This document shows, one piece after another, positions 8,552 through 54,759 of a stretch of 64,000 nt of DNA; within the stretch, counting starts at the first letter, position 1, and each line of letters opens with the position of its first letter. The position numbers and the translations under genes were made by a program. The notes beneath the pieces were generated by a model. That model ran no database searches, was not told the DNA's origin, and saw only the letters and a list, made by a program, of their open reading frames with translations. Origin of the DNA: Candidatus Magasanikiibacteriota bacterium (GTDB taxonomy: Bacteria > Patescibacteriota > Patescibacteriia > Magasanikbacterales > UBA922); the NCBI GenBank assembly GCA_018652595.1, contig JABIBU010000027.1, forward strand, positions 4,416-68,415. The letters run 5' to 3'.

Positions 8552-8714
8552 ATAATTAGTAGAAGGTTAAAAGTAGAAAGTATAAAGATATTTTATATGA
8601 AAAATATATTTTTGTCCAACAAAAAACTACCTGCCATCAGATAGTCTTTTGTAGTTGGGGCGAGAATTATGGTGCTCGCCCGTTTCACCTTTGTTCTCGG
8701 TTGCGAGGCAAGGA

Positions 8715-8945
8715 CTACCTGTCCATGCCGGCGAGCAAGGCCTCGGCGCCGTTGGTCGTGTCGGTCCCCATCAGCCATGCCAATGACTTGTCGGGATCCT
8801 GACTTGATTCGACCGTGTTGGCGATGGCGTTGAGTTCTGCTTCTCCCTCTGTTGCACTCACTCCCGGCTGCAGGAGAGATCCCACCGGTAACGCCCCCTT
8901 CCTCTCCAGACGCTCCAGTCCGCCCATCTCACGATCCTGTGGCAT
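8715..8945 (-). CDS. Hypothetical 76-aa protein in GC-rich island A (own SD AAGGAGGG)
   Basis: ATG preceded by AAGGAGGGTATC. GC about 58% against about 35% in the host. Upstream TTGTAT-16-TAATAT promoter-like sequence. Hairpin downstream. Confidence 0.45.
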   Translation of the reverse strand: MPQDREMGGLERLERKGALPVGSLLQPGVSATEGEAELNAIANTVESSQDPDKSLAWLMGTDTTNGAEALLAGMDR

Positions 8946-9002
8946 GATACCCTCCTTGGTGTTTGGATCATCAGTTTATATGTATATATTATCATATATA
9001 TA

Positions 9003-9036
9003 AAAAAATACAACCTTTTGTGAGGTTGTATTTTAT
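9003..9036. terminator. Rho-independent terminator (AAATACAACC-loop-GGTTGTATTTT) for the antiporter gene
   Basis: Hairpin with flanking A/T tracts just downstream of the 9057 stop. Confidence 0.55.
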
Positions 9037-9056
9037 TCCATGTATATTATATCGTG

Positions 9057-10391
9057 TTAGATCGCTTCTCCCAATGGTTTAGGCTTCACACCAGTATCTT
9101 TCATAACAGCTTTTTCAAACATAATTGCACCAACTACAGTGACGAGAATTACAGCTAGAAGTGCGGCAGCGGCCATGGTTTCATCAAGTACATTATTGGA
9201 AATAGCAACTGCTACAAAGACTAATCCAACCTCACCACGAATAGCCATAGCAAGACCAACTTGATGACCTTCATGCCTGTCTTTGAATAAGTATTTTACA
9301 AGGTATTTACCAATTAAACCAAGAATAGTAAATACTATTGCCCAGGCCCAGGCTTTTGGATTCATAATAGCTTCACGAGAAAGCATAGTACCAATGCTGA
9401 CTAAAAATCCACCAACAAAGATGTGGATATACCCTTCAATCTTTTCCCATGTCTCGTGTTTAATTTCATTATCAACTTTTGATAGTACTACACCAATGCC
9501 AAATGCACCAAGAACAGGTTCCAGACCAACAACAGCGGCTAGAGTACCACCCAGCATAAGAGATCCAAAGAAGAATCTAGTATAAGGTCCGGTAGTATTG
9601 GAATAATGTTTGTCTAAATATTTTACAACTTTGTCCGCAATACCTGCGCTCCACATGGCGTAAGCACCACCAAAGAAAGCAATAACAGAAACACCAAGCC
9701 AGACAAGGCTCATAACATCAAGACCACCAGCTTCACCATGAGCACCTACGGCTCCAGCAGCGGATAATTTTGCAAGAACTGTCAAAACCAAAACACCTAA
9801 AATATCATCAATCACAGCAGCACCCACAATACGGTTTCCCATGTTGGTCTCAAGTTTGCCAGCTGCTTTCAAAGCCTCTACTGACAGACCAACTGATGTG
9901 GCAGTGAATATACCACCCAAGAAAATTGATGGTAACCACTCCAAACCAATAACATAGTGACCAAGTGCAGCAAATGATACTAAAGGAATAAGAACACCAC
10001 CAAGAGCTACAGCAGTGGCAATACCAATATTTTTCTTCAAAAGTTCTAGGTCAAAATGAAGACCAGCTTCAAACAAGATGAAAAGTACACCAGCAAGGCG
10101 AGCAATTTCTACACCACTTGCGTATGGATCAATAACTCCGATCAAAGCTGGACCAGCGATAATACCCATGACAATTTTTCCTGCCATTGGAGCAATACCA
10201 AACACTCTTGCTAAGCGTCCACCAAAAGAAGCAAACACAGCCAAGAAAGCAATGTCTAATAAAATAGGCATGATCGTGTTAATTTCGTGATGATGGCTAT
10301 GAAGTAATGCTCCGCGCAAATAGTGCAAAGCAGTTGCAGCCACAACTGTTTCTACTGCAACGAGTAGAATTGTCTTAAGTTTCTGTCCCAT
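9057..10391 (-). CDS. Cation:proton antiporter (CPA1/CPA2, Kef/NhaP-type Na+/H+ exchanger family)
   Basis: 444 aa, about 12 TM helices, Na_H_exchanger-like glycine-rich helices. Confidence 0.7.
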   Translation of the reverse strand: MGQKLKTILLVAVETVVAATALHYLRGALLHSHHHEINTIMPILLDIAFLAVFASFGGRLARVFGIAPMAGKIVMGIIAGPALIGVIDPYASGVEIARLAGVLFILFEAGLHFDLELLKKNIGIATAVALGGVLIPLVSFAALGHYVIGLEWLPSIFLGGIFTATSVGLSVEALKAAGKLETNMGNRIVGAAVIDDILGVLVLTVLAKLSAAGAVGAHGEAGGLDVMSLVWLGVSVIAFFGGAYAMWSAGIADKVVKYLDKHYSNTTGPYTRFFFGSLMLGGTLAAVVGLEPVLGAFGIGVVLSKVDNEIKHETWEKIEGYIHIFVGGFLVSIGTMLSREAIMNPKAWAWAIVFTILGLIGKYLVKYLFKDRHEGHQVGLAMAIRGEVGLVFVAVAISNNVLDETMAAAALLAVILVTVVGAIMFEKAVMKDTGVKPKPLGEAI

Positions 10392-10495
10392 ATGTATATG
10401 TGGATTATGAATTAATAGCTATGAGTTAAGAATTGAATAGCCAATATTATACTCTCGTTTTAGGGAAAAAACAAGGGTTTTTGTGGATAACATCC

Positions 10496-10526
10496 ACTAA
10501 TTCTAACACGAATCTACACGAATTTT
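10496..10526. repeat. Partial copy of family 1 repeat (AATTCTAACACGAATCTACACGAATTTTA)
   Basis: Shares the ACACGAAT / CTAAC core with copies at 1767, 11787, 22207 and 23269. Upstream of the antiporter start. Confidence 0.45.
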
Positions 10527-10563
10527 AAAGTTGTCGATTAGTGTTAAGATTGGTGGTTTATAA

Positions 10564-10636
10564 CAAAAAACTCACCAATCTCCTTGTTTATCTGCTAATT
10601 TACTTAGCAAGTAAACAAGTGCGGTGAGTTTTTTGT
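10564..10636. terminator. Long bidirectional terminator hairpin (AAAAAACTCACC...GGTGAGTTTTTT with nested stem)
   Basis: 12-bp outer stem flanked by A6/T6. Confidence 0.55.
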
Positions 10637-10679
10637 CCCTCGTTCGCAAGTGCCCTGTCTGTATTGAGGAAAAATTATG

Positions 10680-10931
10680 TCATCCATACTTGACATTGCT
10701 CACGATATCACTACAACAGGGGCCTGTGGGTCCGAATCTTACTCCGTCTATGTTTTGAGAACAATGACCCCATCTTTCACAGGGGTTAGAGAAATCCTGT
10801 GGATCGAAGTTTCGATTCTGGTTAGTCTCACCCAAAAACCACCACTTCAGAAATGTTCTGAAATCAAAACATTTCATGAGCTCTGGATATTTACCAGCGT
10901 ACCAGTTATACCTTCGTTGGTTTTCAGTCAT
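10680..10931 (-). CDS. Hypothetical 83-aa Trp/Cys-containing protein (second gene of SD-bearing two-gene cassette)
   Basis: Translationally coupled: the AAGGAGAG SD and ATGA overlap the end of the upstream gene. GC about 43%. Confidence 0.4.
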   Translation of the reverse strand: MTENQRRYNWYAGKYPELMKCFDFRTFLKWWFLGETNQNRNFDPQDFSNPCERWGHCSQNIDGVRFGPTGPCCSDIVSNVKYG

Positions 10932-11190
10932 CTTCGCTCTCCTTTTTGGATTGTTCTTTCAATCTAGCGAGTTCTTCAATTCTTTCTGCTCTCTTTTTCG
11001 GAGACATTTTTCCAGAACCGTCACAGGTATAACATTTTGTATACTCGGCCATTCTCCAGCCGCCTGTTTCATCAGTCCTCTGTCGTCCTTCTGAGGTCAT
11101 CACGATGCGCTCACCATGACAAACCATGCAGATATCACAAATTTGAATTTGTGAGCACTTTGAACATAATATTCCACGATAACACTCCAT
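10924..11190 (-). CDS. Hypothetical 88-aa zinc-ribbon protein (CxxC..CxxC plus DnaJ-type CxxCxGxG motif), first gene of cassette
   Basis: MECYRGILCSKCSQIQICDICMVC...KCYTCDGSGK. Preceded by the SD AAGGGAG. Bracketed by terminators at 10564 and 11271. Confidence 0.4.
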   Translation of the reverse strand: MECYRGILCSKCSQIQICDICMVCHGERIVMTSEGRQRTDETGGWRMAEYTKCYTCDGSGKMSPKKRAERIEELARLKEQSKKESEDD

Positions 11191-11270
11191 TGAAAACTCC
11201 CTTAGTTTACGACTTCAATAATGAAGTCAAATCGTGTTTGTAACTACTAGACTCAACCTAAGCATATCAT

Positions 11271-18179: not shown

Positions 18180-18354
18180 ATTTTTTACTAAAAAAGCCTT
18201 TTAATAGAGCGACCATATTTTACTATAATTTTCAAACTAAGTCAACAGTGTTTTAAAATTGGCTTGTTAATAAGTTATTCTGTACTTAAAACTTGATTTT
18301 ATCTTTAAAAAAGTGTATCATTATATGATTCAAATTCGATAGGAGGGGTACAAC

Positions 18355-18474
18355 ATGAAGATTTTGGATAAGGCAGTTACCGAGGTGGCAAGCACTGTAT
18401 TTATGATTGCAGTAATCGCAGTGGTAGTAATTCCTCAGATGGTTCAAAAAAAGCGAGGGAATTTGTCTCAATGA
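18355..18474 (+). CDS. 39-aa hydrophobic peptide with basic C-terminus (type I toxin-like), strong SD AGGAGGGG
   Basis: Manual translation: MKILDKAVTEVASTVFMIAVIAVVVIPQMVQKKRGNLSQ. Upstream TTGATT-17-TATCAT promoter-like sequence. Structured GC-rich 3' region ending in a terminator. Not in the track (<60 aa). Confidence 0.4.
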   Translation: MKILDKAVTEVASTVFMIAVIAVVVIPQMVQKKRGNLSQ

Positions 18475-19448: not shown

Positions 19449-19478
19449 TTGACTTTTTTTAAATTTATGACTATTATA
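19449..19478 (+). promoter_or_regulatory. Sigma70-type promoter TTGACT-17-TATTAT for island B gene
   Basis: -35 at 19449-19454, -10 at 19472-19477. SD GGAGGGGG lies 5 nt before the ATG at 19531. Confidence 0.45.
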
Positions 19479-19530
19479 CTACATCGGCAAAAACAGCGCC
19501 ACTTTGATGGCGTGCAATTGGAGGGGGTAG

Positions 19531-19974
19531 ATGCGTATTCGAGAATGGATTGAGAGACATGCAACCTCAGCATGGCACGAGGATGTTTGGGAAAATCCCA
19601 CCAAGATGGGCTTATACGTGCACCTGCGCTGGTGTGTGTTCGAGCCGGGAATGGCCCACATCAAGGAAGGGTCTGTGATTCTCATGGTTGTGGTCGAACC
19701 GGGTGGAGCGATTACACGCTACACACACGAGAACCGCAACAGCTGCAACTTCGCCATGGCTTGGCTGGAACGAAAGCTGGCAAGGCAGTTTGGCAACTGG
19801 GATCACGACAACGGTATGCCCAAAAGAGTTCAGCTGATGGCGGCCAGGAAGGAGGAGCAGCACATTCCTGTGACCTTCCTGATCATGAAGAAGGGGCGCG
19901 ATCTGATTCCCAGTGTTAGCTATCCAAACAGACCAGACCACCCGGAGGACAGAATCGCCAATCTCGTCATCTAG
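19531..19974 (+). CDS. Hypothetical 147-aa protein, GC-rich island B
   Basis: GC about 55%. Strong SD. Own promoter and terminator. No recognisable family. Confidence 0.5.
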   Translation: MRIREWIERHATSAWHEDVWENPTKMGLYVHLRWCVFEPGMAHIKEGSVILMVVVEPGGAITRYTHENRNSCNFAMAWLERKLARQFGNWDHDNGMPKRVQLMAARKEEQHIPVTFLIMKKGRDLIPSVSYPNRPDHPEDRIANLVI

Positions 19975-20028
19975 CGTAGGAGGGACCAAAAAAGGCGGAG
20001 GAGGCCGCCTATTGTTCATTGTTGGAGG

Positions 20029-20061
20029 AAGACCCTACGTAAAGTGGGGTCTTCTGTTTTA
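20029..20061 (+). terminator. Rho-independent terminator (GAAGACCC-loop-GGGTCTTC-TGTTTTAT)
   Basis: Perfect 8-bp stem plus a U tract. A second hairpin GGCGGAGGAGGCCGCC precedes it. Confidence 0.6.
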
Positions 20062-20065
20062 TAGA

Positions 20066-20602
20066 CTACAAAATGGCATCCTCAACATAATCAACCCCAC
20101 TCTCTAATAATTTCAAAGCATCTGGTAAGAGTGGAATTAAAATAGCAGCTGTCGAAGTCAAGAATGGTGCCATAAAAGACCCATCAATATACCCCATAAA
20201 ATGTTCTGACAAAGGTACTTTGTCAATAAAATATAAAATTAAACCAAGCGTCAGAATTCCTTCAAAAATTCCGAGCATCATCCCCAAAAATCTATTTATT
20301 CCTTTTATAAATGGAAGTTTTGTTACTATGTCAGTAGTTTTCTCAAAAATCCAGAACCCAAAGCCAACTAATCTATTTATTACAACGAACGCAATAATAA
20401 ACATCACAACTTTTGGAACATTACCCTCCCAACCAGTTATGTTTGCTAGCCACTCACCCATTGGTTCATACCAACGACTAGCGAGAAATGCTCCGAGTAT
20501 AGTACCAAGTAATGAGCCCAAAGTATGTATGAGCCCAAACCAGAAACCGAACATTGCGAAACCAGAGATAATAATTAGTAAAATTACATCAAATAATCCC
20601 AT
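20066..20602 (-). CDS. CvpA-family (colicin V production) membrane protein
   Basis: 178 aa, 4 TM helices, CvpA-like pattern. Confidence 0.6.
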   Translation of the reverse strand: MGLFDVILLIIISGFAMFGFWFGLIHTLGSLLGTILGAFLASRWYEPMGEWLANITGWEGNVPKVVMFIIAFVVINRLVGFGFWIFEKTTDIVTKLPFIKGINRFLGMMLGIFEGILTLGLILYFIDKVPLSEHFMGYIDGSFMAPFLTSTAAILIPLLPDALKLLESGVDYVEDAIL

Positions 20603-28435: not shown

Positions 28436-29152
28436 TTATTTCATCAAACCCTCTTCAAAATCTACCAAATAAAAATTCCCATCATTTAAAACTGCGGCCT
28501 CAATTTTTTTATCAATTCCAAATATAATACTGAGACCTACAATAATAAATAATATCGCCAAAGTTTTTTTGAACCAACCCTTTGGATCTGCCAGACCACT
28601 CAATCGCTTCGTTACTTTTTGTCCCAGATATGCTATTAAGAGCAATATTGAAGAAAGTCCTGAAGCATAGATTAACAAATAAATAATTCCTACAAAATAA
28701 TTTTGAGGTAGTACAGTTGCCAGAATAAGAAAGTAAGTTGGTGAGCAACTAGAAAACACAGGGCCGAGCGCTGCACCCATCAAGATGTCTCCCCACAAAG
28801 TTTTTTTCTGACTAGACTCATAAAGAAATTTGTCAGATTTGGCAGAGAATTTTAGTTTATTACTAAGACTTCCCCAGAGATTCGGGAAAAGTGCAGTAAA
28901 TCCAAAAAATAAAATAATAAATCCAGAAACCAAGCTCCATGCCTTTGGTGGAATATCAATTAGCAGTGTGCTAGCTTTCAAAAGCAGAGTGAATAGAATA
29001 ATTGAGACAGCTAGCGAACCAACTATAATAAAGGGTCTGCGCTTATTACTATCTTCTACAGATTTGCCAATAATAATAGGCAAAATAGGCAGAATACAAG
29101 GAGCGAGCACTGTAAGTACTCCGGCTACAAAGCTGACTAGAGCTAATGTCAT
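28436..29152 (-). CDS. ccdA: CcdA/DsbD-family thiol:disulfide electron transporter
   Basis: 238 aa, 6 TM helices. APCILP and later Cys in TM4. Confidence 0.7.
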   Translation of the reverse strand: MTLALVSFVAGVLTVLAPCILPILPIIIGKSVEDSNKRRPFIIVGSLAVSIILFTLLLKASTLLIDIPPKAWSLVSGFIILFFGFTALFPNLWGSLSNKLKFSAKSDKFLYESSQKKTLWGDILMGAALGPVFSSCSPTYFLILATVLPQNYFVGIIYLLIYASGLSSILLLIAYLGQKVTKRLSGLADPKGWFKKTLAILFIIVGLSIIFGIDKKIEAAVLNDGNFYLVDFEEGLMK

Positions 29153-29186
29153 AGGCTTATATGGTTAAATTTTGGTAATAGATTTG

Positions 29187-29990
29187 TTATTTTAATTTGT
29201 CAAGAATACTTTGCAAATCACTACCTCCAGTCCATTTTGTAATTTGGTTTCCTTTTTCATCTACTTGAACAAGGGTGTGTTGATATGTAATACTGTATTT
29301 TTTACGAAGATCATTTGCATCATCATAATTTACTTGTAAAATATTCAAGTCAGTTGGAATATCATCTAAAGTTTTGTTCAAATTACTTTCCAAACGACGA
29401 CAAGTTGGGCACCAAGCAGCGTGAAAAAATAAAACTACATTATTTTCTTTTGCTAACGCTAACTTTTCTGGTGAGTAAACTTCATAAGTGCCAGGTAAAT
29501 TTTGTAATATTTCTTCTACTACTATTGTTTCTTCTACTACAGGGACTTCTTCGAGTACTTTTACTTCAGCAACCTGTTCATCAATATCTTTTACAATTAA
29601 TTTTCCAACCATACCTTGGGCGCGATGATTGCCAACCGAGCAATAGAATTCAAACTCTCCTGCTTTGTTAGCTACGAAAGTAACACTGGTTTTGTTACCT
29701 GTATTTATCTTTTTTGTTTTTACATTCAATTTGTCAATTACAAAGTCATGGAAACCTTGTGAATTATAGAAATCTATTGTGACAGTCTCTCCCTTATTTA
29801 TCGTGATTACGTTTGGGGTGAAAGAATAGTTTTTTCCTTCTACCTCTATACGAAGACCGTCTATATTTTGTACATCACCGGCTTCTGTATTTGGATTAAT
29901 TGGAAGGCTTGCTTCTTTGGAAACTTTGTTACAACCTCCACCGATCATAATCAGTGACATTGCAAACACAAAAAATATTTTGTATTTCAT
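29187..29990 (-). CDS. Lipoprotein fusion: cupredoxin (type 1 blue copper) domain + thioredoxin-like domain (WCPTC)
   Basis: Lipobox MIGGGCNK. Cupredoxin ligand set …H…CSVGNHRAQGM. C-terminal HAAWCPTCRR thioredoxin motif. The track ORF starts 25 codons earlier at 30065. Confidence 0.6.
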   Translation of the reverse strand: MKYKIFFVFAMSLIMIGGGCNKVSKEASLPINPNTEAGDVQNIDGLRIEVEGKNYSFTPNVITINKGETVTIDFYNSQGFHDFVIDKLNVKTKKINTGNKTSVTFVANKAGEFEFYCSVGNHRAQGMVGKLIVKDIDEQVAEVKVLEEVPVVEETIVVEEILQNLPGTYEVYSPEKLALAKENNVVLFFHAAWCPTCRRLESNLNKTLDDIPTDLNILQVNYDDANDLRKKYSITYQHTLVQVDEKGNQITKWTGGSDLQSILDKLK

Positions 29991-30006
29991 ATTTTTATTT
30001 ATTAAA

Positions 30007-31029
30007 TTAATCCCAAAGCAACCCATCATCCCCGTGATGAATGCTCCAAGAAAAATACATTTCATAATATCCCGGAACGGGTTTGTTGTTTAATTTTGCA
30101 AAAACTTCTCCATCAATCTTCTCTACTTCTAGGTTATCACTATTTATTTTTTTGGTTAACTTCTTGCCTTCTTCTACATTTTTATTTGCCACAGCAACAG
30201 ACTTATCTCCTACTGGGATTACAAACATAATTTCTTTTGGTGGAAATTTATCATCAAAATCAGAGGTTGGGAAATAAATATCATCGTTATCGTCATAGCC
30301 TCCATAAGGATAGAAAGAATAATTTCGTAGATGACCAGTCTTTTTGCTTAGAACTTTTGCATTTGGATATTTTTCTTTTACAGTAGAGAAAGGAATCAAT
30401 TGCATTGGTAAAATTTCCAACTTTGTCTCAGTATAATACCCTACCACAGCCTCTCCTCGAGCCTGTGACCATAGACTTTCAGTCTTTTTGTCATACATGA
30501 GTAGATTTGATTCGAACAGTCTTCCACTAACACCAAATTCTAAAATAGCACCATCAATATTCCTATTATACACAATCCCCGAGCCACACAATGGGCAAAA
30601 AGTCGCTGTAAAATAATTATCTCCTATATTGTCATTTACAATTTCATGCCAAACAAGAATATTATATGGATAATAGCGAACTTCACCATCAAAACTAACC
30701 AAAATACCCAAAGATTCTTCTGGAAAGTCTGCTGACGCAATATTAGTAAATTTTGGATTGGTGAGTGCAGGTATTCCATCTTTCCCCGGGCCTCCAGACA
30801 AGATTTGATTAGTGTCTATTATGGTTTTGTTAAAATCTGTTTTCAAATCAGACAACCTTATATCTGGATCCATATTCTCTAGTTTCTTGGGATTTCCTTC
30901 CTCATCCATAAAACTACTAATCATATTATTTATAGATTGCTGTTTTGTATTTTTAAGATTGACGTAGACCACTCCAGCTATAATTAATAAAATAATTATT
31001 ATAGCCAGTAAAATAATATTTTTTTTCAT
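30007..31029 (-). CDS. DUF3179-family protein with N-terminal membrane anchor
   Basis: 340 aa. DGIPAL and CPLCG motifs characteristic of DUF3179. Confidence 0.6.
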   Translation of the reverse strand: MKKNIILLAIIIILLIIAGVVYVNLKNTKQQSINNMISSFMDEEGNPKKLENMDPDIRLSDLKTDFNKTIIDTNQILSGGPGKDGIPALTNPKFTNIASADFPEESLGILVSFDGEVRYYPYNILVWHEIVNDNIGDNYFTATFCPLCGSGIVYNRNIDGAILEFGVSGRLFESNLLMYDKKTESLWSQARGEAVVGYYTETKLEILPMQLIPFSTVKEKYPNAKVLSKKTGHLRNYSFYPYGGYDDNDDIYFPTSDFDDKFPPKEIMFVIPVGDKSVAVANKNVEEGKKLTKKINSDNLEVEKIDGEVFAKLNNKPVPGYYEMYFSWSIHHGDDGLLWD

Positions 31030-31137
31030 ATGTAATTAGTATAACATAAAATGATTATTCGATAAACTTGACTTGACAAAAACTGCTAAATATGGTGTTA
31101 TATAAGTAATGAAACAACTGAAACCCGGGAGGGTAAT

Positions 31138-31884
31138 ATGAAAGGCGCTCTTTACGTTCTGTGTCTGTGCTGGTTCCTTCTGGGTTGTACTGAGAATGAT
31201 CTGGTGACAGACCCTGAAGAGATTGGTGTCGCCACGGACGCCACCCCGGAAGAAAAAGATGTCGTGGAGTCCACCGACCTGAAAGAGACGGACATCGAAG
31301 GCGACGCCTACACAGGCGAGGTTGTGCCCATCTCATACCCCACCTGCGGGGATTGCGACGATGAGAACGCCTGCACTGTGGGATGGTGTTCTGACCCCAA
31401 GCAGAACCTGTGTTCATACGAACCAGTCTACTGCGACGATGAGAACGAAGAGACCGATGACTGGTGCCATCAGATTGATGGGTGCATCTACTGGTCGCAG
31501 ACCTGTGTCCAGGATGTCCACTACGAGCTCTGGACTGACATGGTCTCGGGACCCAAGATCAAGGACACAATCTTGGATGTGAGCCTGGGGTGCTGTAACA
31601 GTGACCTGGATTGCAAGGGCTCACCTTGGGGCGAATACTGCGTCGAGTGGAAACCGCCTATGGTGGGGTTTGGTCTCAAACCCGAAGAAGACGATAACCA
31701 GTACGCATGGCTCTGTCACGAATGCGAGGACAACTGCGACTGTCCTTTCGGGCAGGAGTGTGTACTCGCAATGCAAAATCTCCTCACCCAAGAGGAGCTG
31801 GATTGCTACCACGAGGAGCTCGAACAAGACTTCCTCGGAGCACCACGACGGCCTGTCTTGCGCTGTCAGGATCCAGGAGGATAG
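31138..31884 (+). CDS. Secreted Cys-rich acidic lipoprotein with myxo-type cysteine-rich repeats (CxDxDxNxCTxxxC), GC-rich island C
   Basis: Signal/lipobox MKGALYVLCLCWFLLGCTEN. Repeats CGDCDDENACTVGWCSDP and YCDDENEETDDWCHQIDGC. SD GGGAGGG. GC about 56%. Upstream TTGACA promoter-like sequence. Confidence 0.55.
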   Translation: MKGALYVLCLCWFLLGCTENDLVTDPEEIGVATDATPEEKDVVESTDLKETDIEGDAYTGEVVPISYPTCGDCDDENACTVGWCSDPKQNLCSYEPVYCDDENEETDDWCHQIDGCIYWSQTCVQDVHYELWTDMVSGPKIKDTILDVSLGCCNSDLDCKGSPWGEYCVEWKPPMVGFGLKPEEDDNQYAWLCHECEDNCDCPFGQECVLAMQNLLTQEELDCYHEELEQDFLGAPRRPVLRCQDPGG

Positions 31885-31973
31885 ACATCGATCCTTCTAA
31901 AACATATTGGGCCACCCCCGTCGGGGGTGGTTGGAGAAGAACGTGGGCGAACAACACTGTTCGTCCACCACAC

Positions 31974-32003
31974 AAAAAACACCTATGAAGGTGTTTTTTG
32001 TTA
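31974..32003. terminator. Bidirectional rho-independent terminator (AAAAAACACC-TATGAA-GGTGTTTTTTG)
   Basis: Perfect hairpin between island C and the uvrC stop. Confidence 0.6.
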
Positions 32004-43574: not shown

Positions 43575-43650
43575 AGACTTATTCTACCACTTTTATAGCA
43601 AAATTACTACTTATGTGATAGAATAAAGATTAATCACTTTTTAGACTGAG

Positions 43651-43688
43651 ATTGCCACGTCATGTATTCTCATTCCTCGCAATGACAC
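43651..43688. repeat. Family 2 repeat copy (ATTGCCACGTCATGTATTCTCATTCCTCGCAATGACAC), inverted relative to the copy at 46460
   Basis: Its reverse complement aligns with GTCATTGCGAGGAGTGTGTAACAACGACGTGGCAATCCC. Confidence 0.6.
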
Positions 43689-44262: not shown

Positions 44263-44293
44263 AAAAAAACTTCCATATCTGGAAGTTTTTTAT
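44263..44293. terminator. Bidirectional terminator (AAAAAACTTCC-ATATCT-GGAAGTTTTTT)
   Basis: Perfect hairpin after greA. Confidence 0.6.
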
Positions 44294-44490
44294 TTCGGCT
44301 TTGTATTGGTCTTCCACATGCGGTTTCCTATGCTTCTTTGTCTTTGGGCACCGGCTTGGCTGCTTGCTTTTGCGTGGAAGCCCTGGAGACTGCTTTGTTT
44401 TTTCTTTGGGAGACTCATAGAAGGAAGCTTAGTCCCCTTGCCCAACTTCTTTTCTTCTTTTTTTAAATTTTTTAGGACTTTTGATAGCAT
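44290..44490 (-). CDS. Small Lys-rich basic protein, unknown
   Basis: 66 aa, pI very high. Possibly a nucleic-acid binding or ribosome-associated protein. May not be real. Confidence 0.3.
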   Translation of the reverse strand: MLSKVLKNLKKEEKKLGKGTKLPSMSLPKKKQSSLQGFHAKASSQAGAQRQRSIGNRMWKTNTKPK

Positions 44491-44500
44491 ATTATTTTAT

Positions 44501-46288
44501 TTACTTCTTCCTACCAGCTCTAACTCTATCAGTCTCAGTCAATTGCTGTTTTCGTAGGCGGATACTCTTTGGGGTGATCTCTAGGTACTCGTCTTCAGAC
44601 ATTACTTCCATTCCCCTTTCCAGCGTGAGATCCATAGGCGGGATGAGCGCGAGGGCATCGTCAGTACCAGAAGCACGCATATTGGTAAGTTGTTTGCCTT
44701 TTATTGGATTGACTGTCATATCTTGACCTTTGGCAGTATTACCAATGACCTGACCTTCGTAAACTTCCACATTTGCTTTTACATAAAGCACACCACGCTC
44801 TTGGAGATTGGCTAGTGCGTAACCAAGCACCTTGCCAGCTACACCAGAAATCATAGAACCAACGTCGCGTTTTTTGATCTCGCCAGCTACTGGTTTGAAG
44901 CCAATAACTTCGCTACACAAGATTCCTTCGCCACGAGTATCAACTGTAAATTCATTTTTATAACCTAGTAAGCCTCTGGTTGGGATTTCATAAACCACAC
45001 GAGTGTGATTTTGCTCAGGTTGCATAGATATCATCTGTCCTTTTCGTTTTGACATCTTTTCAATTACTGTTCCAGCAAATTCTTCTGGAATATCCAAGGT
45101 AACAAGCTCATATGGTTCGGACTTAACACCGTCCACTTCTTTTATAATAACTTGAGGTTGAGAAACTTGAAGTTCATAATTTTCACGGCGCATGTTTTCT
45201 AGTAAAATTGCAATATGAAGTTCGCCTCTGCCATAGACTTTGAAAAAATCATTATTTTCAAATTCAATTTTTAGCCCTACATTTACTTCCAATTCTTTTT
45301 CTAGTCTTCCTTTGATTTGTTGAGTCGTTACAAACTTTCCTTCTTTTCCAGCATAAGGAGAATTGTTTACAAGGAAATTCAATGAGATTGTTGGCTCGTC
45401 AATTTTAATTGCAGGAAGTAGTTCTTGATTTTCATCTATACAAATAGTGTCGCCAATATATATTTCTGGCAGACCAGATATCATTACAATATCACCTGCA
45501 CCAGCTTCGTCTACTTCTTTTCTATTTATTCCCTCAAAGGTAAATAGTTTTGCGATAGTTCCGGTTGTTGTCTTCTCACCGATTTTTTTTATAAAAACTT
45601 TTTGACCTGCTTTTACTTTTCCTTGATAGATTCTACCAATACCAAGACGGCCGAGATAATTATCATAAGCTAGGTTGAATGGTTGAAAAGAAAATGAAGC
45701 TTCGGTATCAGCCTCGGCTGGTGAAACTTTTTCTAGAATAACATCCAAAAGCGGAGTAAGATTGTCTGACTCGTCTTCTAGATTCATTTTTGCAATCCCC
45801 TCTTTTGCAATAGTATAAACTGTAGTGAAATCAAGTTGCTCATCATTGGCACCTAGATCCATGAAAAGTTCTAGTACCTTGTCATTGGCCCAGTCTGGTC
45901 TAGCTGCTGGCTTGTCGATTTTATTTAGAACTACAATAGGCTTGAGGCCTAGCTCTAGAGATTTTTTTAAAACAAATTTGGTCTGAGGCATTGGCCCTTC
46001 TTGGGCATCTACAATTAGAAGCACAGAATCAATGGAACGAAGAACTCGCTCTACTTCTGAACCAAAATCAGCATGACCTGGTGTGTCTACTATGTTTATT
46101 TTTGTATCTTTATAGAATACTGAAGTGTTTTTGGAATAAATAGTAATACCACGCTCTTTTTCAAGATCGTTTGAATCCATACTCACTTTTTCATCTGTCA
46201 CCATTCCAGTCTGACGCATAAGAGCATCAGTCAGCTTGGTCTTGCCGTGATCTACGTGAGCTATGATTGCTATGTTACGAGTTTCCAT
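44501..46288 (-). CDS. typA: Translational GTPase TypA/BipA
   Basis: 595 aa. AHVDHGKTKLTDALM G1 motif. EF-G-like domains. Confidence 0.9.
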   Translation of the reverse strand: METRNIAIIAHVDHGKTKLTDALMRQTGMVTDEKVSMDSNDLEKERGITIYSKNTSVFYKDTKINIVDTPGHADFGSEVERVLRSIDSVLLIVDAQEGPMPQTKFVLKKSLELGLKPIVVLNKIDKPAARPDWANDKVLELFMDLGANDEQLDFTTVYTIAKEGIAKMNLEDESDNLTPLLDVILEKVSPAEADTEASFSFQPFNLAYDNYLGRLGIGRIYQGKVKAGQKVFIKKIGEKTTTGTIAKLFTFEGINRKEVDEAGAGDIVMISGLPEIYIGDTICIDENQELLPAIKIDEPTISLNFLVNNSPYAGKEGKFVTTQQIKGRLEKELEVNVGLKIEFENNDFFKVYGRGELHIAILLENMRRENYELQVSQPQVIIKEVDGVKSEPYELVTLDIPEEFAGTVIEKMSKRKGQMISMQPEQNHTRVVYEIPTRGLLGYKNEFTVDTRGEGILCSEVIGFKPVAGEIKKRDVGSMISGVAGKVLGYALANLQERGVLYVKANVEVYEGQVIGNTAKGQDMTVNPIKGKQLTNMRASGTDDALALIPPMDLTLERGMEVMSEDEYLEITPKSIRLRKQQLTETDRVRAGRKK

Positions 46289-46380
46289 ATGGAAAGGCTT
46301 GAAAGGCTTGTCCGCCAGAGGACGGATCAGCCTTGGGCTGAAAATGCTTATCCACCCAAGGCGGATCAGTCTTTCAGCTG
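46289..46380. repeat. Family 3 repeats upstream of typA (GAAAGGCTTGAAAGGCTT; GGATCAGCCTTGGGCTGAAA; GGATCAGTCTTTCAGCTGAA)
   Basis: The 16-mer CAGCCTTGGGCTGAAA is identical to 8085..8100. Confidence 0.55.
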
Positions 46381-46459
46381 AATAACAAAATTCTCCTGGT
46401 AGGAGAATCTACTGTGACGGGATTATACTATAGTTTTGGGGTTTTGTCAACCCCCCCAT

Positions 46460-46498
46460 GTCATTGCGAGGAGTGTGTAACAACGACGTGGCAATCCC
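46460..46498. repeat. Family 2 repeat copy GTCATTGCGAGGAGTGTGTAACAACGACGTGGCAATCCC (partner arm CTCGCAATGAC at 46573..46583)
   Basis: 11-bp perfect inverted repeat GTCATTGCGAG/CTCGCAATGAC about 100 bp apart. Confidence 0.6.
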
Positions 46499-46592
46499 AT
46501 ACTTAAAAACCACTGTCAGTGCAATAAAGACTGAAATTGCCGCGCAACAAGTCCTCTTTGAGAGACTTATCGCTCGCAATGACAGTATAAAC

Positions 46593-46617
46593 AAAAAAAT
46601 ACCTTTTTAAGGTATAT
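46593..46617 (-). terminator. Rho-independent terminator for island D minus-strand gene (ATACC-TTAAAAA-GGTAT + U7)
   Basis: On the minus strand, ATATACCTTAAAAAGGTATTTTTTTG. Preceded by a GC-rich palindrome GTGTCGAACGGGCGGGGCGGTCGACAC. Confidence 0.5.
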
Positions 46618-46708
46618 AGTGTGTCGACCGCCCCGCCCGTTCGACACCGTTCTGGTAGTCTAGGCGGGGGGCCTCTGATTGTATGCGAAGTTCGCATGAC
46701 TTCCTCCC

Positions 46709-47245
46709 TTAGGTTCTGTTGCTTGGGTGCTCTGGACACCACTTCGCCTCGCAATTCTCGCAATCCACGTCCACATCTATCACAGTGGCAACAATTATGC
46801 CACGGCGACCAAGACCGACCGTGTCATCGAAAGTAACCTCCTCTCTTGTCTCGATAGTAACCCTTTTCGTGAAGATGAACCAGAAGGTACTCACGAACAA
46901 GGTAATCGTCAGCATCCAGGACAGGAGGCACCCAGGACAAACCATCCCAACTTCAACTGCCCTCATAACCAGGAAGACGGTGAATCCGCCCGCGAAGGTG
47001 ACGAGGATGTAGTTGAAGATTGGAAAGAGCCCCCACTTGCTTCTGCTGGACCTGGCCATAAGGGCCGTGAGCCCAATCGTCAGGTACCCCACAGCCCCTA
47101 TCAGAGCGAAGGGCACTCCCAACAGCAGGGTATCAGCGACGTCCTTAGCATGTCCCAGAGCACAGATGTGTGCCCCACCAGCCACGAGGATGCCGATGAA
47201 ACCAAGTGCCGCGATGACAGAGAAATAGAATCTGTGCAAATCCAT
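46709..47245 (-). CDS. Hypothetical 4-TM membrane protein with C-terminal CENCEAKWC motif, GC-rich island D
   Basis: Start MDLHRF preceded by GAGGGGGGG. The track ORF starts 5 codons earlier. GC about 57%. Confidence 0.5.
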   Translation of the reverse strand: MDLHRFYFSVIAALGFIGILVAGGAHICALGHAKDVADTLLLGVPFALIGAVGYLTIGLTALMARSSRSKWGLFPIFNYILVTFAGGFTVFLVMRAVEVGMVCPGCLLSWMLTITLFVSTFWFIFTKRVTIETREEVTFDDTVGLGRRGIIVATVIDVDVDCENCEAKWCPEHPSNRT

Positions 47246-47285
47246 GGAACCCCCCCTCAAGGTTTTCTAAGTTGTTGAACAAAGT

Positions 47286-47314
47286 TTTTATACCATAAAA
47301 TAAAAGGTTTGTCA
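47286..47314 (-). promoter_or_regulatory. Consensus sigma70 promoter TTGACA-17-TATAAA (minus strand) for 46709..47245
   Basis: Plus-strand TTTATA at 47286-47291 and TGTCAA at 47309-47314. Confidence 0.5.
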
Positions 47315-47391
47315 AGTATAGTAACAAAAAACACCCTATAGAATAATGTTTTTTTGACTAGACCCAACTATTCCACATTACAGTAAGGGAC

Positions 47392-47420
47392 TTGACAAAA
47401 GTGCTAAAATGTGCTATAAT
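47392..47420 (+). promoter_or_regulatory. Perfect consensus sigma70 promoter TTGACA-17-TATAAT (plus strand) with about 210-nt structured leader before 47637
   Basis: TTGACA 47392-47397, TATAAT 47415-47420. The leader contains the hairpin CTTGCTGGT…ACCAGCAAG. Confidence 0.55.
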
Positions 47421-47636
47421 ATATCGTCATAATCCAAAAATTAAGTCTAGTAAATAGCTTGTATTTTAAGGGGTTATAACGAGGTTCGTTTCAATCTAAA
47501 CCCACCAAAAGGAGTCTTGCTGGTGAAATATGTTTATTACCTACATAGGTGTGAGTATATTTGACCAGCAAGGCGTGCCTAATTAAGCGCCCTGCTATTA
47601 CGCGGTGACGTAGCCGCATTATACAGGAGAAGAGAA

Positions 47637-48221
47637 ATGGCTGACAACAAGAACGTCTTTACCTGCAGTGTGACCTGGGAAAACATCTGTAAGCTTTCGC
47701 TGCTCATGACCAACGGTCTCAAGGATGAGGAAGCCAACCAGGAACTGGTGTACATGGCGGATAACTCCTTCGGGTCTCGTGAGTGGGATGCAATGGAAAG
47801 TGCCCACCGCGTGGACAACGGCTGTGATGGGGACTGGATCGGCTTCCAAGAAGCAAGCTCATCCCGATTCCTCTGGGGCTCGGCCTCATCCGGGGCCACC
47901 ATCGAAGTCGTGAAGTATCACGAGTTCTGGGAGTTAACATTCACGGGTACGAACGTCACAGAGACTGGCAGAGAATCCTGGTATGCTACCGCGGCCGCAA
48001 TGGTAGTGAACCCCCGGGACATTCAGGAAATTGATTTCCCCGAGACTGTGGCATTCTTGGACACGGTACGAGTGTCGGAAAATGACGTGTGGGTCTCCGA
48101 TGAAGAGAAGCTCATACGCGCCAACTTCCTCGAGGGTTTCGAAGGGATCTTCTATATCAATGCACCGCTTACCGAAGCAGAGCAAATCGAAGCTGACTTC
48201 GACTCCGGTCGTCTAAGCTAG
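47637..48221 (+). CDS. Hypothetical 194-aa acidic soluble protein, island D
   Basis: SD AGGAGAAG. GC about 56%. No recognisable family. Confidence 0.5.
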   Translation: MADNKNVFTCSVTWENICKLSLLMTNGLKDEEANQELVYMADNSFGSREWDAMESAHRVDNGCDGDWIGFQEASSSRFLWGSASSGATIEVVKYHEFWELTFTGTNVTETGRESWYATAAAMVVNPRDIQEIDFPETVAFLDTVRVSENDVWVSDEEKLIRANFLEGFEGIFYINAPLTEAEQIEADFDSGRLS

Positions 48222-48467
48222 TGATCCTTCTCCACACCCCGCTCTTTCAACGTCGCATCTAGCTACTGGCGTGATGCGAAAGGCCTGATCTATCAGGTCA
48301 ACTACTACTGGTACGCGTTCCAAACACAGGAACGCCACACCTTCATCCCCGAAGGTTGCCAGTGTACTCGAAACGCACGCTCGACTCCCCGTCGACGTGC
48401 CTTCAACTATCTTACTCTTGGACTTTTCAAGGGTGAAATTGAGAAGAAAATACAATTTGAGACAAAA

Positions 48468-48497
48468 TAAAAAACCGTGAATTATCACGGTTTTTTT
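48468..48497. terminator. Bidirectional terminator (AAAAAACCGTGA-ATTAT-CACGGTTTTTTT)
   Basis: Perfect 8-bp stem between island D and the DEAD-box helicase stop. Confidence 0.6.
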
Positions 48498-50945: not shown

Positions 50946-50974
50946 TTGACATTCTTTTTTATTTCTGTTATAAT
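50946..50974 (+). promoter_or_regulatory. Perfect consensus sigma70 promoter TTGACA-17-TATAAT driving tRNA-Asn
   Basis: TTGACA 50946-50951, TATAAT 50969-50974, about 25 nt upstream of the tRNA 5' end. Confidence 0.6.
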
Positions 50975-50999
50975 GTTCTCGTTGTTTACAACTAAACAT

Positions 51000-51385
51000 T
51001 CGACGGTAGCTCAGTGGTAGAGCAACTGGCTGTGACTTTAATAGCAGCCCTTGGTAGTAATACTGAGGTGAAAAACAAGGTGAACTGCAGGAACCCTTAA
51101 TCTGTTGCAAAACAGAAAAGGCGATCTGCAGCCAAGTCTTGACCCCTAATCCATATCCGGATTAATATTACGGACTTACTAAGACTGTAGTAGGGAGTCA
51201 AGAAAGGTTCAGAGACTATCCTTAACGGGAGTAGGATTCGATTTAATCGGATTCGAAGCGCCTTGCACCCCAACGCTCTTGATTTAGTCAAGTTTTTGGC
51301 GAGGGTGATAATATAGTCCACTCTTTTAGGAAACTAGAAGGCAAGTGTAACCAGTGGGTCGCCGGTTCGAGCCCGGCCCGTCGAG
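51000..51385 (+). tRNA. tRNA-Asn(GUU) interrupted by a group I intron in the anticodon loop (exons 51000..51033 and 51348..51385)
   Basis: Acceptor TCGACGG/CCGTCGA, D arm GCTC-AGTGGTA-GAGC, anticodon stem ACTGG/CCAGT, spliced loop CUGUUAA, variable loop GGGTC, T arm GCCGG-TTCGAGC-CCGGC, discriminator G. Confidence 0.75.
51034..51347 (+). other. Group I self-splicing intron (314 nt, no ORF) inserted between anticodon positions 35 and 36
   Basis: P1: exon GGCUGU pairs with the intron IGS GCAGCC (U.G at the splice site). P4 elements: CUGCAGG / UCUGCAG. R element GUUCAGAGACUA. S element AAUAUAGUCC. Terminal omega-G. Confidence 0.75.
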
Positions 51386-52637: not shown

Positions 52638-52804
52638 AGCATTGATTTCACTGATTAATTAATGATTACACAGATTATGATAACATTTTTTGAAGTAAAA
52701 AACAAAAACAACCCTTGGATAAGAGTCGCTTTTGAGTTTGTGCAAGTCTACCAGTCCTGCACACCCCCTCATATCGTATCCTCAGAATCAATCAGAGTAG
52801 AACT

Positions 52805-54559
52805 CTATTGAAAGATTCTTAGAATATATTCTTGAATGAACATGCTGTTCGAGGCCAAGTAATTGGCAAGTCCCCAAACAGCCCAAGGAACAAGTAACCA
52901 CTTCCACAAGTTCTGCTTTTTGGTGGAGATGAAACCACCAAGCAGTACGAGAAGTGGGTCTGCGATTAGACGGTTGGACCAGTGCTCAAATCCGCGTTTC
53001 CAGTCGGAAATTGCGATTCCGAACACCCCAGACTCCATCAAAAATTCGGCCAACTCCCAACTATAAGCGATCGCGAAGATCACAAGTAGGAGTTTCTTGA
53101 TATTGGAGTTTGGGAATACCTTCCTAAGGAGCGGATACATCACCACACCCAAAAGAAAGTGTTCTATTGACCACAGATCGAGCATGGCAACCTCTCTCGC
53201 TCCATACTTCTGTGGCACCACCATACAGATCAACGCCAGCCCCATGACTGTGTCGATGAGCAGGATGATCTTCTTTGGGTTGCTCGTCGGATCCCACTTG
53301 ACGAACTTGTAAACAAGCAAGGCAAGCACTACTAGCACTTCGTCTGCCTTGCGTGTGAGGTAGAGGAAGAATCCTGAAACACTGGCAGTAACCAGTGAGA
53401 TTCGCTTCGCATTTTCTACACCAAGCGCCACAGCCAACGTGTGCTTGTATCCCCTGTCGACCTTGACATCGTCGATGTCCTTGACGATCTCTCTCCACAG
53501 AACTATAAGGAAGAATACTCTGTACCAGATCCAAACACGATGATCACTGGTCCTAAGGTAGACTGAGCCACAGAGCACTGGGCTGGCGCCACAGACTGCG
53601 ACGATCAGGTTGTTGAGCACGATGATATTTTCCAGGTAGGAGTATATCAAGCCCGTGAGTAGGACGGCCAGACACAAGACTCCCAAGTAGAGGTCGTAAA
53701 ACATCAACGCACCTATCAGCACAAGAGTCACTACGGTCAGCTTGACCCAGTAACCCCAAAATGCTTTTGGGTAGTCGAATGCCAGACGTTTTCCCTTCTG
53801 GAGATCATGGCTTCTATCGTACCAGTCATTGAAGGTCATAATGCTCATGTGAAGCAAAGAGCAGGACAAGGCAGCCAGTAAGGCAATACCCCAATCTACC
53901 TGAATCTCTTCGTACATCACAAAACCGCCGAGTGTAAACAGGAAAGTGAAGAGAGTACCTCTAATCCTTCCTGTCTTGACCAACTCCACGAGTGGTGGAG
54001 CAGATGTCTCGAGGGCATCCTTGTAGCCCAGTAACGTATCTTCCACTACTGCGGCTATGTAGATTGACCAGCCGGCAATGGTTAAGAAAAGTACTTGCCC
54101 ATTCATATCACCTTTCAAGATATGGAACAGACAGATTGCCGTGGTGGCAACCCCAAACCCAAAGTAAGGCAGATGGACTATACCACCCAAGCTGATCTTG
54201 CCAGTCTTTGGAAATCCCCAGTTTGGCTTGTAGCTGGGACCAGTCCCAACCCTATACCAAAACCAGGCACCCAAACAGATCGACAGCGCGAACACTACCC
54301 ACCCGAGTGTGCTGACGTGGCCGTTCTGGACCAGGTGACCAAAACCGCAAAACACTAAGCCCATGCCAATGACATCTCCCCATGTCTGGCAATTGGCGTC
54401 CTGCCAATGGTTGAATTTCTGACTCGTGCCAGAAATAGGGCTCCGTCTCGCTGGAATTCTCCCCTGACTCAATTCCCACTGCTGAGTGAAAAATTGAGAC
54501 AAACAGATCAATCCATTAAGAAGGAGAACGATAAGAATGGTGCTGTAGTCTACTGCCAT
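52805..54559 (-). CDS. UbiA-superfamily prenyltransferase embedded in a large polytopic membrane protein (about 584 aa), GC-rich island E
   Basis: First Asp-rich motif FNDWYDRSHDLQKGKR, second motif DIDDVKVDRGYKHT. SD AAGGAGG. GC about 52%. Upstream TTGTAA-17-TATTAT. Confidence 0.6.
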   Translation of the reverse strand: MAVDYSTILIVLLLNGLICLSQFFTQQWELSQGRIPARRSPISGTSQKFNHWQDANCQTWGDVIGMGLVFCGFGHLVQNGHVSTLGWVVFALSICLGAWFWYRVGTGPSYKPNWGFPKTGKISLGGIVHLPYFGFGVATTAICLFHILKGDMNGQVLFLTIAGWSIYIAAVVEDTLLGYKDALETSAPPLVELVKTGRIRGTLFTFLFTLGGFVMYEEIQVDWGIALLAALSCSLLHMSIMTFNDWYDRSHDLQKGKRLAFDYPKAFWGYWVKLTVVTLVLIGALMFYDLYLGVLCLAVLLTGLIYSYLENIIVLNNLIVAVCGASPVLCGSVYLRTSDHRVWIWYRVFFLIVLWREIVKDIDDVKVDRGYKHTLAVALGVENAKRISLVTASVSGFFLYLTRKADEVLVVLALLVYKFVKWDPTSNPKKIILLIDTVMGLALICMVVPQKYGAREVAMLDLWSIEHFLLGVVMYPLLRKVFPNSNIKKLLLVIFAIAYSWELAEFLMESGVFGIAISDWKRGFEHWSNRLIADPLLVLLGGFISTKKQNLWKWLLVPWAVWGLANYLASNSMFIQEYILRIFQ

Positions 54560-54640
54560 CACGACCTCCTTCTATGTTGGTTGATTTTCAAGGTACATTA
54601 AAAATAATAGCATTTTTGAATGTTTTTTACAAGATTATAC

Positions 54641-54672
54641 AAAAACAAAACCCCGATTTTATCGGGGTCTAT
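54641..54672 (-). terminator. Terminator for the giant surface-protein gene (AGACCCCGAT-AAAA-TCGGGGTTTT)
   Basis: Hairpin plus U-rich tail on the minus strand. Confidence 0.55.
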
Positions 54673-54759
54673 CTATATCTAGTATTAGCAAGCTTTTTGC
54701 CTTTTTTCTTGCGGTGCTTTTTGAGTGCAACCTTTTTCTTTTTGTACATAGAATTAAAT

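Follow-up and report, generated by a model that had tools for sequence, protein, structure and literature searches.

Composition, Shine-Dalgarno usage and content of the GC-rich units

A 64,000-nt stretch of contig JABIBU010000027.1 from a Candidatus Magasanikiibacteriota bacterium (hereafter the window) carries, dispersed among the AT-rich genes of this ultra-small member of the candidate phyla radiation (CPR), six GC-rich single-gene units, each led by a strong Shine-Dalgarno (SD) sequence. What is new here is that a GC-rich, SD-led signature lasts in individual genes although the core genes around them have no SD.

Open reading frames (ORFs) were called mechanically and the composition of each was measured. 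The window as a whole has a GC content of 37%, and the GC content at third codon positions (GC3) of the 31 clear host genes is 0.26±0.03, with a range of 0.17–0.33. A uniform GC3 along the contig was not found: the ORFs of units A to F are strong outliers, reaching 0.60–0.71, more than 10 standard deviations from the host value. Their GC content at first codon positions (GC1) is likewise elevated and their relative synonymous codon usage correlates at -0.27 with that of the host, which is the kind of atypical composition and codon usage by which genomic islands are recognised. As for translation signals, an SD of the AGGAG/GGAGG/GAGGGGG type at canonical spacing precedes all six units vs. none of 36 typical host ORFs (at least 150 aa long, the SD being sought within 20 nt of the start). 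An earlier inspection of the letters alone, the sequence-only reading, had set these genes apart from the core by their SD, and this distinction is borne out. The units and their parts are as follows.

8600..9010, minus strand: unit A; coding sequence (CDS) 8715-8945, a 76-aa acidic ORFan (a protein without relatives); SD AAGGAGGG; GC 0.62, GC3 0.71
19449..20066, plus strand: unit B; CDS 19531-19974, a 147-aa ORFan; SD GGAGGGGG; GC3 0.67
31068..31998, plus strand: unit C; CDS 31138-31884, a 248-aa Cys-rich lipoprotein with lipobox LLGC; GC3 0.66
46600..47315, minus strand: unit D; CDS 46709-47245, a 178-aa VKOR-family membrane protein (predicted) with a CPGC motif; GC3 0.65
47392..47630, plus strand: promoter and leader of unit E; 12/12 consensus promoter at 47392-47420, then a structured leader of about 210 nt
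47637..48221, plus strand: unit E, CDS; a 194-aa acidic protein without family; GC3 0.67
48222..48496, plus strand: 3' RNA element and terminator of unit E; element 48222-48462 directly after the TAG TGA stops, terminator 48469-48496
52699..54632, minus strand: unit F; CDS 52805-54559, a 584-aa membrane protein with a central UbiA prenyltransferase domain (predicted); GC3 0.60

The sequence-only reading had counted at least seven GC-rich loci. Its description fits units A to F, but the loci at 10.7 and 18.4 kb are of intermediate GC only, and the stretch 46593-48497, which it had treated as one cassette, actually consists of D and E, two units that point away from each other, and of two conserved RNA elements. 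It had also regarded a near-consensus promoter as a hallmark of the cassettes. Such promoters are indeed present in most units, with promoter-like sequences in B (TTGACT…TATTAT at 19449-19478) and C (TTGACA, 31068-31105) and a promoter in F (TTGTAA…TATTAT, 54604-54632), although A lacks a clear -35 box and host promoters are equally consensus-like: near-consensus sigma-70 sites include the atp promoter, which most of the aligned relatives keep, and, upstream of typA, a promoter-like site that matches at 12/12. The SD is GGGAGGG in C and AAGGAGG in F. At the 3' side, GC-rich hairpins and a terminator were found in the untranslated region (UTR) of A (8600-8714), two GC-rich hairpins in B, further ones in C, a conserved GC-rich 3'UTR in D (46620-46708) and a conserved 3'UTR with a terminator in F (52699-52804).

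Only D and F could be placed in a Pfam family, none being found for A, B, C and E. Unit D, which had been described as an unannotatable four-transmembrane protein, matches VKOR (PF07884) with E=2.9e-7 and 31.1 bits, above the family cut-off of 27.5, and is therefore assigned to that family as a predicted member. Residues 206-416 of F match UbiA (PF01040, E=1.5e-21), which puts it in the predicted superfamily; F scores far under every NCBIfam equivalog cut-off, so that no subfamily or substrate can be assigned. Structure prediction was unusable for E (AlphaFold2, mean confidence score pLDDT 46) and B (pLDDT 40). No tRNA was found in the window, and the Rfam covariance models gave no match at any island, either at the gathering cut-off or at E ≤ 1.

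Units D, E and F in a sister lineage

Locus L004 represents a sister lineage. Identity to the window is 87–92% for its TypA, DEAD-box helicase, radical-SAM and ABC-F proteins. Position and orientation of D and E are unchanged there, and F is internally deleted; D, E and F are thus older than the split from L004. Orthologous D and F have both kept the SD, as have most of the F homologues in CPR genomes. It is therefore functional, and the ribosomes of this organism must be able to use it, which implies that a usable anti-SD is probably present.

In all three units, the regulatory flanks are better conserved than the coding sequences. For D, identity to L004 is 85–90% in the promoter/5'UTR, about 60% in the CDS and 88–93% in the 3'UTR; the corresponding values are 85–95%, 42–78% and 90–97% (over 240 nt) for E, and 80–93%, 60–88% (the latter in the C-terminal part) and 83–88% for F. 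The promoters and 5'UTRs of D, E and F are accordingly conserved, backbone-like DNA, which, for these three units, does not support the earlier idea of self-contained modules that came with imported promoters.

The promoter–5'UTR–SD module of D (47250-47315) is duplicated in L004, where the second copy precedes an unrelated GC-rich gene (L004a). A promoter module mobile throughout the genome was considered and rejected, as the window has this module at D alone, and L004 has it only upstream of VKOR and L004a. Between VKOR and TypA, L004 has three GC-rich units in tandem, each with its own upstream region, the promoter module being found in at least two.

Unit E has one relative, P0039, which is 56% identical and lies at the syntenic site of L004. 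Two conserved structured RNAs, both new objects, bracket this fast-evolving ORF. The leader (47421-47630) is single-copy, folds with z = -5.2 and is 85–95% identical to that of L004, a value that drops to 55–60% where the SD and the start codon lie. The GC-rich 3' element, also single-copy and 90–97% identical, has a minimum free energy of -98.2 kcal/mol vs. -58.3±4.8 for shuffles (z = -8.4), and the four substitutions that fall in its helices between the window and L004 all preserve pairing, with no pair broken. Rfam (E ≤ 1) gave no match at the E leader or at the conserved part of the E tail. An ORF continuing in frame after the TAG TGA stops of E was rejected as coding, since its differences from L004 lack codon periodicity and are mostly transitions, and since L004 has a stop in frame. 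The tail of E begins with CCUUCUCC, which is complementary to the SD of E over 7 nt, and one change in L004 is apparently compensatory; this hints at a possible long-range sequestration of the SD, although a duplex scan did not single out this pairing.

Concerning F, L004 (14310-14732) shows an in-frame internal deletion that keeps the promoter, the SD, the first ~7 codons and the last 133. The remnant is a 140-aa ORF, 67% identical and devoid of the UbiA domain; the C-terminal domain of F may be functional alone.

Age and proposed maintenance of the GC-richness

Between the window and L004, host genes show a synonymous divergence (dS) of 0.6–1.2 and a non-synonymous divergence (dN) of 0.05–0.08. 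For D and E, dN is about 0.35 and dS is saturated. The D orthologues are 50% identical (dS 2.5, dN 0.36, dN/dS 0.14), and for E, the synonymous sites of which are saturated, the ratio of non-synonymous to synonymous differences per site (pN/pS) is 0.33. Both genes are thus under purifying selection and encode functional proteins.

At four-fold degenerate sites of conserved residues, the excess identity between the two lineages is 0.45 for host genes vs. 0.06 for D and E together (upper 95% limit 0.18), while the GC content at four-fold sites (GC4) of D and E is still 0.64 in the window and 0.51 in L004, the host value being 0.21. In a two-state model of decay to the host equilibrium (GC4 0.21), neutral decay would require an ancestral GC4 of 1.2–2.0 to account for the window and of 0.9–1.45 for L004, which is impossible or nearly so. 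These required values rule out D and E as old transfers that are still ameliorating. The GC-rich codons of D and E have outlasted a full synonymous turnover; they are therefore held by a force specific to these genes and are not the fading signature of a donor. The candidates that remain for this force are selection on an SD-dependent or stable-mRNA class, GC-biased conversion via the conserved arms, and an unsampled GC-rich reservoir.

Selection on mRNA structure was also considered as a general cause of the GC-richness and was rejected, the z-scores obtained from synonymous-codon shuffles being inconsistent across the units (-6.4 for F, -3.3 for C, and no excess for A, B and E).

Assembly and protein-gene status

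Each island protein is present on 4–15 contigs, among which are four metagenome-assembled genomes at NCBI. Over the junctions of A, B, D and E, and over one end of F, fourteen independently assembled loci (SPAdes, MEGAHIT, Logan) agree with the window at 99.97–100% identity; they exclude chimeric assembly at the cassette edges, for which a check had been suggested. These assemblies differ by only 12 variants in total; the population is clonal and the direction of single-nucleotide changes within the species is uninformative.

GC-rich islands in AT-rich genomes are usually RNA genes, and a structured RNA truly flanks E, so the islands might in principle not be protein genes at all but genes for structured RNAs, or else artefacts of assembly. 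We regard this as exceedingly improbable. Purifying selection acts on the ORFs, whose length is conserved, D and F carry Pfam domains, Rfam is silent at the islands and 14 independent assemblies return the same sequence at 99.97–100% identity. For D, E and F it is already refuted.

Insertions in a conserved backbone

Related loci were recovered by searching for exact copies of two small host proteins that are very conserved, and by a metagenome scan with AtpF. At least 12 relatives have a common backbone, Rrf2–NifS–NifU–…–MetG–CvpA–TatD–AtpIBEFHAGDC–NhaP–ProCA, the gaps of which are variable and hold GC-rich as well as AT-rich insertions. Two of the window's gaps are occupied by units A and B. 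Site A, between NhaP and ProCA, measures 505 bp in the window vs. 184 bp in L031, 107 bp in L032 and 5 bp in L048, and is empty in L020/L031, L032 and L048. Unit B lies exactly between the stop of CvpA and the start of TatD, in a gap of 626 bp vs. 9–33 bp in L032, L041, L048 and L051; in L020/L031, this site of 707 bp is occupied by an unrelated SD-led gene (123 aa, GC3 0.72). No target duplication or terminal repeat is visible at the A and B junctions.

Three further loci are less GC-rich or incomplete:

10680..11190, minus strand: intermediate-GC insertion; two small Cys-rich (zinc-ribbon-like) ORFs, each led by an SD
18341..18474, plus strand: ORF 18355-18474 for a 39-aa hydrophobic peptide; SD AGGAGGGG; GC3 0.40
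63880..64000, minus strand: possible further GC-rich unit, GC up to 0.56; the end of an ORF, then AAGGAGGTG, cut by the end of the window

The loci at 10.7 and 18.4 kb are SD-led, lineage-specific and moderately GC-enriched. The first one comprises ORFs 10924-11190 (88 aa, GC3 0.37) and 10680-10931 (83 aa, GC3 0.43), with the SDs AAGGGAG and AAAGGAGAG, in an AtpC-NhaP gap of 927 bp vs. 43–227 bp in L048, L041 and L031; in L032, conservation is limited to the edges of the gap. The 39-aa ORF lies in the TatD-AtpI gap, antisense to the atp operon. In the relatives, this gap contains differing, non-alignable GC-rich segments, with small ORFs in at least L031, and the atp promoter is its only conserved part. 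Being hydrophobic and shorter than 60 aa, the 39-aa peptide would have the size of a type I toxin, and it is the sole such locus. The eighth locus that had been suspected at 63880-64000 is so far the GC-rich end of a minus-strand ORF that runs off the window.

Sites that are empty in related genomes were thus found for A, B and the 10.7 kb locus, as would be expected of patchily distributed genes, but not for D, E and F, which are common to the window and L004. The view of these genes as an accessory set distinct from the core is upheld.

A separate observation was made in the TatD orthologue of L020, which has an in-frame GC-rich insertion (…PLKRGSQRGCSPGEPIPPFIPPFQGGIRG…, 7550-7700) that looks like a small repeat element within a host gene.

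Searches for donors, mobility genes and defence functions

Donors were sought by word-indexed protein searches, an exhaustive HMMER search and a scan of species genomes, none of which returned a relative in a GC-rich genome, so that no donor of the kind expected for an island can be named. For B, only its own 90% cluster was found. No full-length relative of C exists among 1.84 billion representatives, where only a Cys repeat of about 50 aa gives matches. Homologues of F are 37–59% identical, were found only in CPR-type genomes and usually have the AAGGAGG SD; with a GC3 of 0.42–0.68 vs. 0.25–0.47 for their hosts, they exceed their neighbours in 10/10 genomes. No copy of F was found in a GC-rich genome of matching composition, in viral contigs or in 185,579 species genomes outside the group. 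The F family is also the only one that recurs at different backbone sites. Horizontal transfer is common in Patescibacteria and takes place mostly within the phylum (PMC12455944).

As had been noted from the letters, no integrase or transposase adjoins the cassettes: none was found in the 64 kb, nor was a reverse transcriptase, and the genes called in related loci have no integrase domain either. Of the features that usually accompany islands, mobility genes and a tRNA target are absent from the window, and flanking repeats from the A and B junctions. A diversity-generating retroelement does not fit either, no reverse transcriptase having been found and the divergence spanning whole coding sequences. 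PADLOC returned no significant match, only two marginal ones for the 76-aa protein of A (E about 0.005–0.009), and PHROGs, scans of viral contigs and a plasmid search gave no match to the cassettes.

Interpretation and rival explanations

The explanation that we put forward, with about an even chance of being right, is that A–F are accessory, monocistronic, SD-dependent protein genes, some of them inserted at operon junctions, and that the GC-richness of D and E is maintained. Each unit would be transcribed from an ordinary host-type sigma-70 promoter, translated via a strong SD that core genes do not use, and ended by a GC-rich structured 3'UTR with a terminator. The products would be envelope or thiol-redox proteins (VKOR-like, UbiA-type fusion, Cys-rich lipoprotein) and small proteins without assigned function. 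A, B and the two intermediate-GC loci would have entered tight operon junctions of the conserved backbone in this lineage. Neither a recombinase gene nor a target duplication is visible; we infer that taken-up DNA was integrated by illegitimate recombination. D, E and F, with the same regulatory flanks, would already have been present in the ancestor common to the window and L004, their proteins evolving about five times faster than the core, yet under purifying selection. The GC content of D and E might then be held by selection on SD-dependent structured mRNAs, or by GC-biased conversion accompanied by exchange of cassette alleles.

Several points weigh against this explanation. The case for maintained GC comes from three genes and one sister genome, and it uses a simple two-state decay model that takes the coding sequences as true in-situ orthologues. 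The C-terminal part of F has a host-like synonymous divergence and a GC4 of only 0.37. mRNA structure beyond what composition gives was found in F and C only, and one host gene reaches z = -3.2 in the same shuffles. Moreover, AT-rich insertions occur in the gaps of relatives, and the AT-richest gene of the window, that of a 2083-aa protein, is missing from L004; as accessory genes can thus be AT-rich too, flexible genes are not uniformly GC-rich, which would fit mixed donors.

The sequence-only reading had seen in the cassettes a series of independent acquisitions from a GC-richer source, possibly the host of an episymbiont. Repeated acquisition agrees with the empty or otherwise occupied sites of A and B; recent transfer from a GC-rich donor, or from the symbiont's host, is not supported. 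The same signature could nevertheless be left by recent, independent transfers from GC-rich, SD-using donors (possibly the episymbiont's host) whose composition has not yet ameliorated. GC3, GC1 and SD are all unlike the core, A and B are missing from relatives, the intermediate-GC loci may be older, partly ameliorated arrivals, and almost any donor seems GC-rich to a very AT-rich recipient. We nonetheless hold this to be unlikely. No donor was found; B and, its Cys repeat aside, C are ORFans, the single relative of E comes from a sister CPR lineage, and those of F all lie in AT-rich or moderate-GC genomes of CPR type, where F is again the GC-rich outlier (10/10). D, E and F predate the split from L004 and share their regulatory flanks with it, and D and E cannot be neutrally decaying relics. 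Exchange of cassette alleles, in which the conserved UTR and RNA segments would serve as homology arms while coding sequences are repeatedly swapped by homologous recombination with an unsampled GC-richer reservoir, for instance relatives richer in GC or extrachromosomal elements, would explain why coding sequences are far more diverged than the flanks, the identity changing sharply at the SD/start and again at the stop, and why the arms of E (93–97%) exceed the backbone genes (80–87%) in identity. Unrelated payloads lie at site B beside a similar -35 end in the window and L020, the D promoter module serves another payload in L004, and lineages with a GC3 of 0.42–0.49 exist within the family. 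However, no sampled genome is as GC-rich as the cassettes, swaps among AT-rich or moderate-GC hosts cannot keep GC3 above the level of every host, only F recurs at different sites, and RNA function alone accounts for conserved arms; this alternative, too, seems to us improbable.

The units could also be selfish modules, such as toxin-antitoxin, defence or integron-like cassettes, a possibility raised from the start and consistent with small ORFans, strong SDs and structured mRNAs, with the 39-aa hydrophobic peptide and with the three GC-rich units in tandem between VKOR and TypA in L004. The searches give it a very low probability: PADLOC yields the two marginal matches to A, PHROGs, viral contigs and the plasmid search nothing, and the 64 kb contain no integrase of any kind, the integron type included. 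In addition, the units are dispersed, with promoters of their own and no evident partner gene, and D and F look like ordinary membrane enzymes. As for the explanation by maintained accessory genes, it can be extended to a second, GC-separate gene compartment in this CPR lineage, in which GC codons, SD-dependence and structured UTRs would be maintained as a distinct mRNA expression regime, the F family carrying the signature across many CPR genera. We consider this extension quite unlikely as it stands. Speculatively, such a regime might consist of messages read only by ribosomes with an exposed anti-SD, of unusually stable mRNAs or, most speculatively, of messages for a partner cell.

Comparison with known systems

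The units resemble genomic islets by their atypical composition and codon usage, patchy presence and insertion between backbone genes, and by relatives that are mostly from the CPR. They differ from them in being single genes, without tRNA, integrase or flanking repeat, and in being GC-richer, not AT-richer, than the host. Atypical composition is a standard sign of recent transfer and is expected to fade, a process for which the amelioration model was reportedly proposed by Lawrence & Ochman in 1997. In D and E, however, the atypical composition outlasts complete synonymous turnover, which that model forbids.

With integron cassettes, the units share their small and often ORFan genes, each with its own SD and 3' hairpin, the different payloads at one site and, in L004, one promoter module serving several payloads. 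Here, however, they are dispersed singletons, most of which have a recognisable promoter of their own: L004 retains those of D, E and F, and promoter-like hexamers precede B and C, which sets the units apart from a promoterless tandem array. Neither the window ORFs nor the genes called in related loci contain an integrase domain, whether of IntI or of another kind. The D/E boundaries show no GTTRRRY-type junction, and no common 3' motif was evident by eye; no formal search for attC was made.

O-antigen and capsule loci are hypervariable, with atypical GC and conserved arms, and they are similar to the present units in having deeply diverged alleles between conserved flanks at a fixed site. The units are nevertheless on the scale of a single gene, their flanks are UTRs and structured RNAs instead of genes, and their GC lies above that of the host. 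The hypervariation described for Gracilibacteria (PMC6851277) has no bearing on these units.

The nearest known parallel comes from Bacteroidia, in which the anti-SD is masked by bS21, bS18 and bS6, and the SD-led rpsU is translated by ribosomes that lack bS21 (PMC9976891, PMC13000453). A core without SD (0/36 here) and a small set of strongly SD-led genes are common to both cases; here, in a different phylum, the SD-led genes are accessory and GC-rich, and not a gene for a ribosomal protein. By analogy only, the SD-led cassettes might form a separately regulated translational class.

At least D and E have kept a foreign-looking composition and a translation signal unused by the core after full synonymous turnover, and the F family is GC-rich in every genome where it was found. 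If the GC-richness is maintained, composition-based detection of transfer and amelioration dating would be unsafe in CPR genomes, and a gene-specific force on base composition, or a separate translational class, would act in organisms whose gene expression is almost unstudied.

Neighbouring genes and other observations

Unit C adjoins genes for CcdA/DsbD-like and thioredoxin-cupredoxin proteins; the stretch 28436-31029 near C encodes a CcdA/DsbD-like transporter, a cupredoxin–thioredoxin fusion and a DUF3179 protein. With D being VKOR-like and F a predicted prenyltransferase, several cassettes may take part in extracytoplasmic disulfide chemistry.

Around TypA, the gene order differs between the window and L004. 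GC-rich palindromic elements (GTCATTGCGAGGAG…) are found at 43638-43687, 46459-46508 and also 46566-46584 in the window, where the GreA–66-aa–TypA block is enclosed by them as a 50-nt inverted repeat with 78% complementarity, and at 19214-19264 in L004, where the copy lies at an unrelated place. These may be repeats similar to miniature inverted-repeat transposable elements that mediate rearrangement. On the minus strand upstream of typA, a 12/12 consensus promoter at 46450-46422 precedes a terminator-like hairpin at 46410-46388, some 100 nt away from the start of typA; this upstream region (46289-46450), with 84% conservation in L004, might serve as an attenuator or a leader.

The dS of backbone genes relative to L004 is uneven, as a comparison of 44290-44490 with 44501-46288 and 61132-63761 shows. 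It is 0.17 for the 66-aa gene, whose protein is 100% identical, rises to about 0.6 for the genes of TypA and the DEAD-box helicase, and reaches about 1.2 for those of the radical-SAM and ABC-F proteins. This suggests a mosaic history of recombination or very different constraints.

Next to F, the minus strand (54760-61011) encodes the 2083-aa surface protein, with Big_5, beta-helix and peptidoglycan-binding domains; its GC3 is 0.17, and in L004 it is absent between the same flanks. Finally, the plus strand at 50946-51340 holds a group I ribozyme that is complete (RF00028 of Rfam, 78 bits over model positions 1-253). It is intergenic, on the strand opposite to its neighbours, with a 12/12 promoter 50 nt upstream and no surrounding host gene or tRNA. 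Promoter and ribozyme are 88% conserved in L004 (13504-14149), in inverted orientation. Rather than an intron, the element appears to be a group-I-like RNA that stands free and is driven by its own promoter; it is, beside the two RNAs of E, a candidate new object.

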